IMG/VR virus record: IMGVR_UViG_2537562231_000011
Source of the DNA: a virus
Lineage: Duplodnaviria > Heunggongvirae > Uroviricota > Caudoviricetes
Reading direction: 5' to 3' (one strand)
DNA: 39,723 nt
Shown here: positions 8,087-24,830 of the stretch, in pieces
Layout: every line of letters begins with the position of its first letter
How positions within the stretch are numbered: the stretch's first letter is position 1
Notes under the pieces: model-generated
What the model saw: only the letters and a program-made list of their open reading frames with translations
Databases searched by the model: none
Told to the model about the DNA's origin: nothing
Position numbers and translations under genes: made by a program

Positions 8087-8271
8087 TTTCTTTTCTTCCT
8101 ATCAATTTGAAATTATTAACTTTTAGTGTTGTCAGCAACCATTGATCCACAATAGACAAAAGAAAGATGTTTTTTTTGCTTTACATGAAGCAGAAGTGGA
8201 TCAATACTTATATCAAACTTGATAACTAAGTTTAGTTATCAAATTTCGTAACTTTTTAGGATAGATGAATC
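8087..8271. promoter_or_regulatory. Divergent early control region (operators and candidate early promoter)
   Basis: AT-rich 185 bp. 10-bp inverted repeat ATTGATCCAC (8141-8150) / GTGGATCAAT (8196-8205). 24-bp near-palindrome TTGATAACTAAG/TTTAGTTATCAA (8219-8242). Candidate -35 TTTACA (8180-8185) and -10 AATACT (8203-8208) with 17-bp spacing. Confidence 0.45.
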
Positions 8272-14685: not shown

Positions 14686-15237
14686 ATGATGAAATTACAA
14701 CCCATGGGACTAAAAGGTCGCGCCCCCGCTCATGTCCGTCCGTGGACACCTGAAGAAGATGCGCTGCTGATTGCGCTTTATTCATCCACCCCGGTTAAGG
14801 ATATTGCTGCCAGAATAAAAAGAACTGTCTGGGCTGTATATAACCGGACTGGTGTATTGCGCAGTTCATACCCGGAGTTACTGAAATATAAACACCCAAG
14901 ATTTACACCTGATGAAGATAAGTTTATTCGAAAAAATGCCAGAACAATGACCTGCCAGCAAATGGGAGAATATCTCGGACGTAATAAAGATTCTGTCAGA
15001 TGTCGGGCAGGAATGATTGGTGCTGGATTAACAAAGTGCGGAGAGTTACGCCCCGGCACGCGCATATCTGATGATGATGTACGTCTTATACGTGAGCTGC
15101 GTGATTCCGATTACCCACGCCGTCTGTCATTCCGGGAAATTGGCGAAAAGTTTGGAATATCTGAACATTCTGCTCACGCAGTTTATTACCGTCGCCGGAC
15201 TGCCGAGGACGCTGTATTACGGGAGTTAACGCCATGA
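14686..15237 (+). CDS. Hypothetical protein with three HTH / Myb-like repeats; putative DNA-binding
   Basis: Three ~45-aa repeats beginning WTPEEDALL, FTPDEDKFI and ISDDDVRLI, each followed by a helix-turn-helix-like stretch. Confidence 0.4.
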   Translation: MMKLQPMGLKGRAPAHVRPWTPEEDALLIALYSSTPVKDIAARIKRTVWAVYNRTGVLRSSYPELLKYKHPRFTPDEDKFIRKNARTMTCQQMGEYLGRNKDSVRCRAGMIGAGLTKCGELRPGTRISDDDVRLIRELRDSDYPRRLSFREIGEKFGISEHSAHAVYYRRRTAEDAVLRELTP

Positions 15238-15566
15238 TAACGACCTTATTTGTTGAATCAGATGAACCTCTTGTGTGTGCCGCCGGAATGCCGCTCTGTG
15301 GCGGAACGCTGACCGGCGTTTATTTCGGGGATTTGCGCGGTTATCCCTGGCATTCACTGGATGACGCATTTCCGCCTGATATGGAGGCTGTCGTGCTGAT
15401 TGTTCAGTATGGTGACCAACAGGAACTGCGCATCGGCCATATGGGGTATGAAGGCTTTTTTATTGATGAAGAAACCGGAGCCTGCCTTGAAGATGAGGAC
15501 GGACAGGTGACGCACTGGTGCCATCTTTCGGCCTTGCCGGAATTACAGGGGATACATAATGGATGA
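15234..15566 (+). CDS. DUF551-like phage protein
   Basis: 110 aa with W..L.D..PP...V...Q.....VTHW..L..LPE pattern as in the enterobacterial prophage DUF551 family. Confidence 0.45.
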   Translation: MITTLFVESDEPLVCAAGMPLCGGTLTGVYFGDLRGYPWHSLDDAFPPDMEAVVLIVQYGDQQELRIGHMGYEGFFIDEETGACLEDEDGQVTHWCHLSALPELQGIHNG

Positions 15567-15702
15567 GCAAATTGTTGAATGTCCCACCTGTGGAAATGAG
15601 GACCCGGAGTATCTGAAAGAGTGCCCACATTGTGGTGAGATAAAATGTAACCACTGCGATATGGGCGACGACACTGCATGTATAAATTGTGAGGATGAAT
15701 AA
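15559..15702 (+). CDS. Small zinc-ribbon protein (47 aa, four CxxC pairs)
   Basis: Own translation: MDEQIVECPTCGNEDPEYLKECPHCGEIKCNHCDMGDDTACINCEDE. Below the ORF-track length cut-off; start overlaps upstream gene. Confidence 0.4.
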   Translation: MDEQIVECPTCGNEDPEYLKECPHCGEIKCNHCDMGDDTACINCEDE

Positions 15703-15703
15703 T

Positions 15704-15991
15704 ATGGAAAAAGAAATCAAATTTGCGCCTAAATCTATCGACGAAGAACTGGCTAAAATCGGCATGCTTGAACGTATGCGGGACATTATCGAATATGCGA
15801 TAAAAGAAAATCTTGCAGCCAGAGAAGCCCTTTTGATAATGGAGCGGGAGATTAACCTGATTAAGGATGCTGTATCTCTGGATAATAAAATAGCCCGCGA
15901 GGAATACGTTCGCCGTAGGCTCGGTGTTGATGGTTCAGCAATTCTTACATCTGAACATTATGCAAAAATTTTTAATCTTTTTCAGCGGTAA
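15704..15991 (+). CDS. Hypothetical small protein (95 aa, predicted helical)
   Basis: ATG at 15704 two bases after the previous stop; AT-rich; 3' end overlaps the convergent minus-strand gene. Confidence 0.4.
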   Translation: MEKEIKFAPKSIDEELAKIGMLERMRDIIEYAIKENLAAREALLIMEREINLIKDAVSLDNKIAREEYVRRRLGVDGSAILTSEHYAKIFNLFQR

Positions 15992-16211
15992 TCCCCATAC
16001 AGGCCCGGAGATTGTCGAAATGCCAGTCGGTATTAATATATGAGCCATCCTGGATATCTTCTGCATTTTCCGGGGTAGAGTTTTTTTGAGCGAGATTGAT
16101 AATATGTATTGCCTCCTCACGGGAAATCAGCCCCTTATCGAACAGGGTTACCATAAGATTTCCAGCCATTGTGAATGCGGCAACATCAAGTGCATTTTTT
16201 ATATCTGACAT
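15972..16211 (-). CDS. Hypothetical small protein (79 aa), antisense to the early operon
   Basis: Minus-strand ORF with AAGGA-type ribosome-binding site ahead of its ATG; the only credible minus-strand gene inside the unidirectional block; AT-rich. Confidence 0.4.
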   Translation of the reverse strand: MSDIKNALDVAAFTMAGNLMVTLFDKGLISREEAIHIINLAQKNSTPENAEDIQDGSYINTDWHFDNLRACMGITAEKD

Positions 16212-16239
16212 AGATTTTTCCTTTTATGTTAATTGACAT

Positions 16240-16268
16240 GGCGGTGCGGTAACACCGCCCATTTTTTA
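16240..16268 (+). terminator. Rho-independent terminator (GGCGGTG-CGGTAA-CACCGCC then ATTTTTTAT)
   Basis: Perfect 7-bp GC-rich stem followed by T-run, 14 bp upstream of the GemA-like gene. Confidence 0.55.
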
Positions 16269-16281
16269 TGGAGCCACGATA

Positions 16282-16794
16282 ATGAATCGCGCTTCCCTGA
16301 TTACCTTAATACATGTCGCAAAACGCGATCTACAGCTTGACCATGATACCTATACATCCGCGCTGCTGGCAGCCACCGGCAAATCCAGTTGCCGTGATAT
16401 GTCACCCGGTGAGTTATCCCGCGTGCTGGATGTTTTCAAAAAACGCGGTTTTAAAGTGCGTCAGAAGCCGGTTAACCGGGCCTTAAAACCGGGTACGGTG
16501 ACCGCCAAAATTCGCGCCATCTGGAAAGTGATGCACCGGCAGGGATTTATCTCTGATGGCGGGGAAACGGCCCTTAACCGCTGGGTGAAATCGCAGACGG
16601 CCGCGCAGAACGACGGCGAAGGTGTGGCTAACTGGCAGTGGCTGGAGCAACAACCCGCGCTGGCCTCTGATGTGCTGGAGCGTCTCAAACGCTGGCACCG
16701 CCGCAAAATGCTGGCAGCCCTGGATATGTCGGAACGTGCAGTGATGAGTTATGAGCGTGTTTGCAGGCTGTATGAAAAATCATTCCCCCGTTAA
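16282..16794 (+). CDS. GemA-like regulatory protein (Mu gp16 / DUF1018)
   Basis: 170 aa; N-terminal LITLIHVAKRDLQLDHDTY...TGKSS motif typical of the family; position before the Mor/C activator. Confidence 0.65.
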   Translation: MNRASLITLIHVAKRDLQLDHDTYTSALLAATGKSSCRDMSPGELSRVLDVFKKRGFKVRQKPVNRALKPGTVTAKIRAIWKVMHRQGFISDGGETALNRWVKSQTAAQNDGEGVANWQWLEQQPALASDVLERLKRWHRRKMLAALDMSERAVMSYERVCRLYEKSFPR

Positions 16795-16797
16795 CCC

Positions 16798-16830
16798 CAA
16801 ATCCCGCCACAGCGCGGGATTTTTATTTTA
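16798..16830 (+). terminator. Rho-independent terminator (AAATCCCGC-CACAGC-GCGGGATTT then TTATTTTA)
   Basis: 9-bp perfect stem followed by T-run, directly after the GemA-like stop. Confidence 0.6.
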
Positions 16831-16864
16831 AACTTGCCCTGTGTAATGATGACCGGAGGCGGGT

Positions 16865-17287
16865 ATGGCTGAAACACAGATGAGCATGTTTGGTGACAGC
16901 GAACAGCTGCACGCGCTGATTGACCGTCTGGATGATATTCCTGATGATGAGCTGAAAAAGAACTGGCCCGGCACGCTGCGGGACCTGGTTGATGTGATCA
17001 GTGCTGAACTGCACCGTCAGGGGATTGAACCTGCTCAGGCGGGAATGCTTGCCCGTAAGGTTGCAGCCGCACAGGCCGGGTACATGGGCGGGCGTGGTTA
17101 TTATCTCCCGGTCGGTGAATCCCTTTTCACCGAACTGCGCAATAATGAAATTTTTTCCCGCTGGAGCCAGGGCGAAAAAATTGAAACCCTGCGCCGCCAC
17201 TACCAGATGTCAGAGACGCAGATTTACTCCGTTATCCGCAACCAGCGTCGCCTGCATCAGGAACGCACGCAGCCACGGCTTTTCTGA
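16865..17287 (+). CDS. Mor/C-family transcriptional activator
   Basis: 140 aa; C-terminal HTH and overall pattern consistent with the Mu Mor/C family; lies immediately upstream of the lysis cassette. Confidence 0.7.
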   Translation: MAETQMSMFGDSEQLHALIDRLDDIPDDELKKNWPGTLRDLVDVISAELHRQGIEPAQAGMLARKVAAAQAGYMGGRGYYLPVGESLFTELRNNEIFSRWSQGEKIETLRRHYQMSETQIYSVIRNQRRLHQERTQPRLF

Positions 17288-17358
17288 TATTCCGCAAATC
17301 CTGCCCACTTTTTCCCACGGTTACGCTGACTCAGAGAACACCATGAGACAGCGTAACA

Positions 17359-17859
17359 ATGCCAAAACTCCCCGCACCCCTGCGTAAAAAGCTGATTGCC
17401 CTTGTTCTGGCCGGAGCCGGGACGTTCACCATTGCCACGCACTACACCGGCTACTGGGAAGGGAAAGAAAACACCACGTACATTGATCCCACCGGCACCC
17501 CCACCATCTGTTACGGCCATACCGGCCCGGATGTGAAACCGGGGATGACAAAAACTGATGAAGAGTGTCTGGAGCTGCTGGAAAAGGACATGAAATGGGC
17601 CTTTGCGGCTATCGATCGTCATGTTCAGGTGCCGCTTACCCGTGGTCAGACGGTGGCGCTGGCCTCCTGGATTTTCTGGGCCGGTGAAACGAACTTTCGC
17701 AACTCCACGCTCCTGCGCCTTATCAATGCCGGGCAGATGCCCGCGTCCTGTAAGCAGTATATCCGCTGGATTTATTCAAAGGGGGTAAAACTCCCCGGTC
17801 TTGAGGCCCGCCGTTCGGCGGATGAATGGTTATGTCGTTACGATTTGCCGAAAGTCTGA
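17359..17859 (+). CDS. Endolysin (lysozyme-like) with N-terminal signal-anchor segment
   Basis: 166 aa; hydrophobic N-terminus (LIALVLAGAGTFTIA) then YIDPTGTPTICYGHT lysozyme-type motif. Confidence 0.8.
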   Translation: MPKLPAPLRKKLIALVLAGAGTFTIATHYTGYWEGKENTTYIDPTGTPTICYGHTGPDVKPGMTKTDEECLELLEKDMKWAFAAIDRHVQVPLTRGQTVALASWIFWAGETNFRNSTLLRLINAGQMPASCKQYIRWIYSKGVKLPGLEARRSADEWLCRYDLPKV

Positions 17860-24749: not shown

Positions 24750-24830
24750 GGTCAGTGGCGGGGGTCGAACCCGCATACATGATCCACCCGGAGGCAGGCA
24801 CCGACTTTACCAGTTAAGCGTACACTGACC
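24750..24830 (-). ncRNA. tRNA-like structured element (T-arm and D-arm consensus, no anticodon stem); function unknown
   Basis: On the minus strand: 9-bp closing stem, D-arm-like GCTT-AACTGGTA-AAGT and T-arm GCGGG-TTCGACC-CCCGC. I could not form an anticodon stem. On the plus strand it is followed by TGTTTATTTTAT. Confidence 0.25.

Follow-up and report, generated by a model that had tools for sequence, protein, structure and literature searches.

A convergent pair of small genes lies in the early operon of an Escherichia coli Mu-like (transposable) prophage, identified as such by Pfam, PHROG, and DNA searches. The prophage is carried on a 39,723-nucleotide (nt) stretch of viral DNA (IMG/VR record IMGVR_UViG_2537562231_000011), which as a whole is called the window below and whose first letter is position 1. 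The rightward gene encodes a homologue of phage Mu gp14, and the leftward gene, the subject of this analysis, is the counterpart of Mu gene 15; we refer to them as gene 14 and gene 15. The features on which the argument depends are listed here.

15704-15991, plus strand: gene 14-like, 95 amino acids (aa), homologue of Mu gp14 (E15); ATG start, Shine-Dalgarno (SD) sequence GAGGA; phrog_6075, E 5e-44
15972-16211, minus strand: gene 15-like, 79 aa, homologue of Mu gp15; ATG start, SD AAGGA at 16219-16223, 7 nt from the ATG; phrog_32893, E 1e-45
15972-15991: 20-bp tail-to-tail overlap of the two coding sequences, from the open reading frame (ORF) coordinates
15883-15921, minus strand: hairpin resembling a leftward terminator (hairpin 15892-15921, U-rich tail 15883-15891), a weakened copy, within the gene 14 codons for NKIAREEYVRRRLG
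16081-16087, minus strand: A7 run in gene 15 (CAA AAA AAC), just after which rare frameshifted variants diverge
16212-16281: divergent intergenic region of 70 bp from the gene 15 start to the gemA start, holding the gene 15 SD, a hairpin, and the gemA SD (16270-16273)
16240-16268, plus strand: rightward GC hairpin with a T6 tail, a candidate intrinsic terminator or attenuator ahead of gemA, from a consensus scan and folding

An earlier reading made from the letters alone (hereafter the sequence-only reading) had described the two genes as AT-rich, overlapping by 20 bp, and including the only credible minus-strand gene in about 30 kb. The overlap is exact, and the GC content is 0.40 in gene 14 and 0.42 in gene 15 against 0.55 in gemA and 0.553 in the prophage from 8272 onward, a dip that is present in every homologous module examined. 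The strand claim holds from ner onward: in the RefSeq annotation of an identical prophage, all coding sequences within 8270-39723 (31.4 kb) are rightward except gene 15. It fails for the prophage as a whole, where the repressor (7538-8083 in that record) is also leftward, these two being the only leftward coding sequences in that annotation. Because the overlap ranges from 4 to 98 bp across homologous modules and is thus not conserved, the 20-bp overlap itself is no specific element. The gap between gene 15 and gemA measures 64-74 bp in 9 of 11 modules.

Gene 15, its protein, and its partner

A word-indexed search with the 79-aa protein recovered near-identical proteins only, and a scan of species-representative genomes with this single protein found no relative. 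An exhaustive HMMER search added seven more distant homologues (P0011-P0017, 67-85 aa), which share 31-44% identity with the query in a multiple alignment, or 37-49% over the HMMER-matched stretches, and can be aligned along the whole 79-aa frame. Common to the family are the motifs FDxAAFTLAGNLLxTL..KG..S.EEA and DWHLDNL. Among eight distinct close alleles, the ratio of nonsynonymous to synonymous polymorphism (pN/pS) was 0.31 in the annotated frame versus 0.70 and 1.37 in the other two. These comparisons indicate that the 79-aa minus-strand ORF is a genuine gene and that its protein sequence is under purifying selection, conserved end to end. The family is found in Mu-like phages of Enterobacteriaceae (E. 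coli, Shigella, Salmonella, and Klebsiella) and in uncultured samples.

Five database entries (P0005, P0007, P0008, P0009, and P0010) switch frame after K43. We considered programmed frameshifting or phase variation at the A7 run and rejected it: the variants are rare (one to three contigs each versus at least 1000 for the intact protein), the shifts fall at different sites, and the alternative frame stays open (to 91 aa) in the window's lineage only, distant homologues having it closed. On this evidence, the frameshifted variants are sporadic mutants or sequencing errors. Rare frameshift variants also occur in the sister lineage, at a C-run.

The relationship to phage Mu was evident from gene order as well as from profile comparisons. 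In the Mu RefSeq genome (NC_000929.1), gp15 is encoded leftward at 7896-8162, overlaps gp14, and lies 70 bp from gemA; UniProt labels it (GP15_BPMU) 'Uncharacterized protein gp15'. Phage D108 carries an unannotated leftward ORF of 119 aa at the same location. A hidden Markov model (HMM) of the gene 15 family scored the D108 ORF at 36.6 bits and Mu gp15 at 20.1 bits, with hhalign probabilities of 94.6% and 93.1%, respectively, and both proteins also matched phrog_32893 at library-wide E-values of 5e-7 and 6e-4. Homology to these two proteins is limited to the N-terminal ~50 residues; it is the shared position, orientation, partner, and flanking hairpin that settle the assignment to Mu gene 15. 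By these criteria, the pair is homologous to phage Mu genes 14 and 15, and gene 15 belongs to a known but uncharacterized family and is no newly acquired gene. Literature searches on gp15, the semi-early promoter, or antisense transcription in Mu returned no functional data.

The partnership with gene 14 extends across the family. All seven loci encoding P0011-P0017 place the gene on the opposite strand within the early operon of a transposable phage, tail-to-tail with an overlapping gene of about 90-120 aa and, for most of them, 68-75 bp from the gemA start. Gene 15 adjoins gemA in L030-L038, L074-L076, and Shigella phage SfMu, which is annotated with the same convergent arrangement; the exceptions are L072 and L073, where another gene intervenes. 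Gene 14 of the window is 48-52% identical to Mu and D108 gp14 and 39-44% identical to the partners in L030, L034, and L035, and a gp14 HMM matched the partners of the remaining family members at 46-132 bits. Where tested, then, the tail-to-tail partner always scored as a gp14 homologue. The sequence-only reading had staked its proposal in part on conservation of the minus-strand ORF in related prophages, and the ORF is indeed conserved, in the same place and orientation and with the same partner, down to 31-49% identity.

The GenBank record of Mu (AF083977.1) annotates this interval differently, with a rightward 55-aa ORF, Mu_54, at 7960-8127 (L001 1933-2100) in place of gp15. If that call were correct, the minus-strand ORF would be spurious and the real gene would run rightward. 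We give this almost no credence. Neither the window nor the diverged homologues contain a rightward ORF of similar size, the leftward frame is conserved as a protein to 31% identity and favored by pN/pS, and RefSeq Mu, SfMu, and the automated NCBI pipeline (PGAP) in E. coli all call the leftward gene. Since the protein is conserved across diverged phages and no rightward ORF exists there, the leftward gp15 call is favored over Mu_54, and the GenBank Mu record is probably mis-annotated at this point.

AlphaFold2, supplied with the family alignment, predicted a compact bundle of three long helices and a short fourth (predicted local distance difference test score, pLDDT, 80), and on this model gene 15 specifies a small, soluble bundle of helices. 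The protein contains neither a membrane segment nor an enzymatic motif. When the two proteins of the pair and the homologues were scanned against Pfam, NCBIfam, and PADLOC, nothing matched; at E<=1, PADLOC-DB 2.0 returned nothing for the gp14-like and gp15-like proteins, Mu and D108 gp15, P0011, P0014, P0017, or the DUF2513 protein that replaces gene 15 in other prophages (described below). A profile search against Protein Data Bank (PDB) sequences produced only insignificant Hsp70-lid and miscellaneous matches (E >= 0.03). Remote-homology and structure searches thus connected gene 15 to Mu gp15 and to a helical bundle, but to no toxin-antitoxin, defense, or fold match.

Terminator-like hairpins on the two strands

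A hairpin followed by a U-rich tail is encoded on the minus strand 19-86 nt beyond the gene 15 stop in 10 of 11 modules. It coincides with the most conserved motif of gene 14, N.KAR(D/E)..(I/V)RR(E/R)LG: its arms are the Ala-Arg-Asp/Glu and Arg-Arg-Glu/Arg-Leu codons, and its tail is the complement of Asn/Lys codons. We recoded the same gene 14 peptide synonymously 1000 times and compared folding stability. In Mu, D108, L034, L035, L072, L074, and L076, the real hairpin (-18 to -23 kcal/mol) beat at least 99% of the recodings (fraction <=0.009). In these seven phages, the gene 15 sense also folded more stably than the gene 14 sense, by 3-8 kcal/mol, since the non-Watson-Crick pairs of the hairpin are G.U on the gene 15 strand. 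A codon-anchored alignment gave pairing in 89.6% of cells, versus 32-47% when the partner was slid, with true covariation being sparse, and the Mu record carries a TransTermHP terminator at the same spot (7839-7873).

Stability relative to the recodings, taken with the strand asymmetry, implies that synonymous sites in gene 14 of these phages have been selected to keep a leftward-only terminator. This codon-kept hairpin is the best available indirect evidence for gene 15 as a short transcription unit of its own, whose leftward RNA would end at this point. In 25 close relatives of the window, the hairpin reaches -16.8 kcal/mol with a synonymous C at 15916; the window has T at this position (Arg CGT, where the close relatives have CGC), which breaks one hairpin pair and weakens the structure to -10.8 kcal/mol. 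The gene 15 SD and the relatives' codon-maintained terminator together lend support to the earlier suggestion of an independently transcribed gene.

On the plus strand, the sequence-only reading had placed a strong terminator after the pair, and this was borne out. The stem-loop GGCGGTG-CGGTAA-CACCGCC at 16240-16259 is followed by CATTTTTTAT; it has a 7-bp stem (six GC pairs), a 6-nt loop, and a T6 run 2 nt past the stem, with a minimum free energy of -13.3 kcal/mol (z = -2.6 versus shuffled sequences). The 4-kb region shows no general enrichment of terminator-like sites (five found versus 4.4 expected). This hairpin nonetheless appears to be more than a chance structure, since the identical stem occupies the same place in phages with diverged flanks, namely Mu, D108, SfMu, L030, L034, L035, and L076, whose intergenic flanks can barely be aligned. 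More distant modules carry GC-rich hairpins of other sequence at the same place: GGCGGCG...TGCCGCC in L019, GGCCGCGC...GCGTGGCC in L074, GGTGGCGG...CCGCCGCC in L072, and a 12-bp stem in L073. The T-rich tail is variable, being strongest in the window and weaker in Mu and D108. Sister prophages without a leftward gene lack the hairpin, and in them gemA begins within the gene upstream; by contrast, a hairpin is present in a prophage with a different leftward gene (DUF2513), and Yersinia phage vB_YpM_3, which lost gene 15, kept the hairpin.

We read 16240-16268 as a putative rightward intrinsic terminator or attenuator before gemA-mor. A protein operator of the Mor type, or another protein-binding dyad, is not favored: symmetric changes in two half-sites could mimic covariation, but the element is single-copy in the window, and the stems of distant phages differ in both sequence and length. 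Wobble pairs do not separate the strands, as three G.U pairs favor the plus strand without reaching significance (p about 0.125). An Rfam scan of 15000-17500 returned nothing relevant.

The same junction may also be the start of a separate gemA-mor transcript. The Mu record places a plus-strand 'semi-early promoter' for gemA over the equivalent junction. According to PMC3820752, Mu lysogens have been reported to express the gem operon constitutively (Paolozzi and Ghelardini 1992, cited there) and show low-level Pe transcription.

Two side observations concern the gene 15 SD. Its complement (16219-16223) can pair with the gemA SD (16270-16273) in a read-through plus-strand RNA, as in most modules; such complementarity is automatic for two divergent SD sequences, and hence we did not count it as evidence. 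In L072 (about 3906-4000) and L073 (about 1502-1650), a long inverted repeat, CC(T)TGTTAG...CTAACA(A)GG, lies over the gene 15 SD region and could represent an operator or a structure in the 5' untranslated region.

RNA, rather than protein, might instead be the main product of the locus, with convergent transcription or a cis-antisense RNA tuning gene 14 and read-through into gemA-mor. The antisense RNA would cover the gene 14 3' end, and also the gemA ribosome-binding site if the promoter lies within gemA, and together with the rightward hairpin it would serve the lytic cascade as a safeguard or timing device. Consistent with this idea, the convergent arrangement is universally conserved, a leftward transcript ending at a terminator within gene 14 would necessarily be antisense to it over about 50-150 nt, and the rightward hairpin occurs in every examined locus with a leftward gene, is absent without one, and persists in vB_YpM_3; the SD complementarity could be added. 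Phage lambda provides a precedent in oop RNA, a non-coding transcript of 77 nt that is cis-antisense to the 3' end of the cII mRNA. However, the gene 15 protein is under purifying selection and conserved from end to end, so that the protein matters and a role at the RNA level could explain the locus only in part. Overlaps range in length from 4 to 98 bp, the SD pairing follows from any divergent gene pair, and vB_YpM_3 is viable without gene 15. RNA as the main product is therefore quite unlikely in our estimation.

Cassette exchange upstream of gemA

The wider surroundings of the pair contain the following features.

15550-16262: swappable cassette of 713 bp comprising the gp13-like, gp14-like, and gp15-like genes and the hairpin, delimited by blastn against sister prophages
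15559-15702, plus strand: zinc-ribbon ORF with CxxC, 47 aa, homologue of Mu gp13 (E14); phrog_5584, E 3e-26, and a DNA match to Mu gp13
16282-16794, plus strand: gemA (Mu gp16) homologue; PF06252, E 2e-28
16799-16832, plus strand: second rightward terminator-like hairpin, between gemA and mor; 9-bp stem and T-run, z = -4.45
16865-17287, plus strand: mor (middle operon regulator) homologue; PF08765, E 7e-31

In blastn comparisons, homology to prophage L019 stops at 15549 and restarts at 16263, and homology to L047 stops at 15572 and restarts at 16309. The breaks at 15549 and 16263 indicate that three genes and the hairpin form one exchangeable cassette, and the stretch upstream of gemA is, by the same comparisons, a site of cassette exchange for which at least three different contents are known. 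The second content is seen in L019 (1409-2500; E. coli JKHS016) and also in L040, L042-L046, and L069. Here a leftward, AT-rich gene of 136 aa with a DUF2513 domain (phrog_585) lies tail-to-tail with a rightward gene that does not match the gp14 HMM, and the cassette carries both a GC hairpin before gemA and a hairpin past the stop of the DUF2513 gene. The third (L047 and L051 types) is a rightward gene for a hydrophobic protein of ~100 aa, with no hairpin. Among 26 related viral loci, seven have the DUF2513-type hairpin, one has the gp15-type hairpin, and 18 have none, a count that omits five further gp15-type loci from the same search. The window's version of the slot was found in 14 of 5426 complete E. 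coli genomes, and its gemA type in about 145.

A plaque-forming phage shows what happens when gene 15 alone is removed. Yersinia phage vB_YpM_3 (MT374852; L079, about 2335-2350) carries a clean ~218-bp deletion between TGAT repeats that removes gene 15 and retains gene 14, the hairpin, and gemA. This deletion indicates that gene 15 is dispensable for lytic growth and that gene 14 is tolerated without it.

The strict co-inheritance of two small genes, which would be regulated differently, one under Pe and the other independently, raises the possibility of a toxin-antitoxin-like pair, in which gp14 would be toxic and gp15 its neutralizer, or the reverse. The sequence-only reading had included this among its options, but the evidence runs against it. 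The genes are convergent and do not form an operon, neither protein matches a toxin or antitoxin family in Pfam, NCBIfam, PADLOC, or PDB sequences, and gene 14 is intact without gene 15 in the viable vB_YpM_3, although this last test is weak, gene 14 being repressor-controlled in any case. Co-inheritance is more simply explained by the position of the gene 15 terminator inside gene 14. We consider a toxin-antitoxin-like pair very improbable.

A moron, in the concept of Hendrix and colleagues, is an additional gene embedded in a phage operon and transcribed separately, from its own promoter to its own terminator. From the comparisons above, gene 15 is an accessory, moron-like element. This agrees in part with the sequence-only reading, which had proposed a typical moron: the AT-rich swappable cassette and the viable phage without gene 15 fit, whereas the sporadic, recent acquisition expected of such a gene does not.

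Whether this element serves lysogenic conversion, superinfection exclusion, or anti-phage defense, being made in lysogens for that purpose, is a separate matter. It is antisense to a repressed operon, AT-rich, and part of a swappable cassette; in another prophage the slot is occupied by a leftward gene of another kind (DUF2513); and gene 15 is dispensable for lytic growth. There is also a parallel in the transposable phage Fc02, where, according to PMC9936078, overlapping opposite-strand genes close to the repressor confer superinfection exclusion. Set against these points, neither the gene 15 protein nor any homologue matches PADLOC, Pfam, or NCBIfam, so the earlier suggestion of a defense gene found no backing there. 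The protein lacks a membrane segment and an enzymatic motif, and the promoter scans identified none. Moreover, its fixed place and its coupling to gene 14 over deep divergence are unlike freely exchanged defense cargo. A conversion or defense function is accordingly a possible but unlikely account of gene 15.

The remainder of the prophage has the gene order of a Mu-like phage. At the left end, a leftward repressor (about 7541-8086) is followed by ner, MuA transposase, MuB, and Gam, then by a series of small 'semi-essential early' genes, GemA, Mor, lysozyme, and the head and tail genes. Window DNA can be aligned with Mu and D108 over gp13-gp14. Six complete E. coli genomes contain copies that match 15500-16400 at 99% identity or more; in five the match is 100%. 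The RefSeq record of a prophage 100% identical over this interval has both ORFs of the pair at the same coordinates, each as 'hypothetical protein', and no coding sequence at the 47-aa gp13-like ORF (15559-15702). In the window, gemA is bracketed by two rightward terminators, raising the question of how mor is expressed; in Mu, gemA and mor overlap. RefSeq places a 'tRNA-OTHER' at 24750-24829 (minus strand) in the identical prophage, and ARAGORN found no tRNA anywhere in the window. Left of the repressor, window DNA (1-7300) differs from that of strain 600029, in which the prophage is inserted in an SgrR-family gene beside lon-hupB-ppiD; such a difference is expected, since a transposable phage inserts randomly.

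Proposed mechanism and comparison with known systems

Taken together, these data favor, with a probability of roughly 0.6, the reading that the pair corresponds to genes 14 and 15 of Mu and that gene 15 encodes a real protein as a self-contained, accessory leftward unit set against the Pe operon. Under this model, gene 15 would probably be transcribed independently of Pe, starting at the gene 15/gemA junction from a promoter that is weak or depends on a factor. Its opposition to a repressor-controlled operon suggests that transcription would probably take place while Pe is shut, that is, during lysogeny. After induction, head-on early transcription would damp the leftward unit by collision or occlusion. 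The product would probably exert its effect by binding a protein partner, perhaps gp14 or a host factor, and the rightward hairpin would limit read-through into gemA-mor.

Several observations weigh against this model. A consensus scan and a weight-matrix scan over seven loci found no convincing sigma-70 promoter upstream of 16211 on the minus strand, where the sequence-only reading had suggested looking for one; only weak sigma-70-like matches appeared, none of them conserved at a workable distance. The best of them, CTGCCA-18-TATCAT at 16372-16343, lies within gemA and is not conserved, and recurrent weak candidates place their -35 element in the hairpin loop, so that transcripts would start with hardly any leader ahead of the conserved SD. 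The window's own leftward hairpin (-10.8 kcal/mol) is no better than 10-24% of synonymous recodings and is not called by a stricter consensus scan, and L073 has no leftward hairpin. Fold and profile searches yield no functional analogue of the gene 15 protein. Expression in lysogens is something that we purely infer, and a gp14-gp15 interaction is suggested by co-inheritance alone, which the location of the gene 15 terminator inside gene 14 explains equally well.

A broader proposal is that the block of gene 14, gene 15, and hairpin constitutes a conserved regulatory checkpoint of transposable phages, which we regard as unlikely. If it were true, the leftward unit would collide or pair with early transcripts and, with the attenuator, gate Pe-derived transcription into gemA-mor, thereby setting the timing of the middle and late cascade or shielding lysogens from leaky Mor expression. 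This would amount to an unrecognized layer of control on the classical early-middle-late switch of Mu.

Among known systems, phage Mu itself is the closest. Mu gene 15 (GP15_BPMU, NP_050619.1; phrog_8747) occupies, like gene 15 of the window, the slot between gp14 and gemA, runs leftward, and leaves a 70-bp gap. Mu also shares the GGCGGTG-N6-CACCGCC hairpin and a leftward hairpin with a U tail in gene 14, and its gp14 is 48% identical to the window partner. The gp15 proteins themselves are far less alike, at only about 24% identity where their N-terminal halves align; Mu gp15 has no recognizable counterpart of DWHFDNL, the C-terminal motif of the window family, and PHROGs separates the families (window 32893, Mu 8747, D108 38610). 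Mu further differs in the weaker T tail of its rightward hairpin and in having a gemA-mor overlap instead of a second terminator between these genes. Shigella phage SfMu has a comparable convergent pair, SfMu_15/SfMu_16 (plus strand 100 aa, minus strand 88 aa), which lies 69 bp ahead of gemA and shares the hairpin, although its protein is of the Mu-type variant and its overlap is 62 bp rather than 20 bp.

Other parallels are functional in kind. Like lambda oop, the proposed gene 15 RNA would be a short leftward transcript that runs to its own terminator and overlaps the 3' end of a rightward early gene; unlike oop, the predicted RNA encodes a conserved protein. Gene 15 resembles the morons of temperate phages in being extra, dispensable, and compositionally deviant, in having a predicted terminator of its own (in the relatives), and in sitting in a slot with alternative cargo. 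It departs from them in its ancient, fixed partnership with gene 14, which is not a sporadic insertion, in the promoter scans having identified none, and in the swappable block consisting of three genes and the rightward hairpin. In the Pseudomonas transposable phage Fc02, the olg1/gene 10 pair likewise overlaps on opposite strands within the early or immunity region, and one of the two genes is expressed in the lysogen (PMC9936078). As described there, the Fc02 pair lies beside the repressor and ner and encodes unrelated proteins, and exclusion was shown for it, whereas the window pair is known from its sequence.

In one respect the finding is ordinary, as Mu annotations have included leftward gene 15 for two decades and its product is still called hypothetical throughout. 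What may be new to specialists is only the embedded terminator maintained by codon choice and the GenBank Mu record's probable error over gene 15. The comparison nevertheless yields a defined and easily deletable unit through which Mu geneticists could address lysogeny, immunity, and the timing of Mor.

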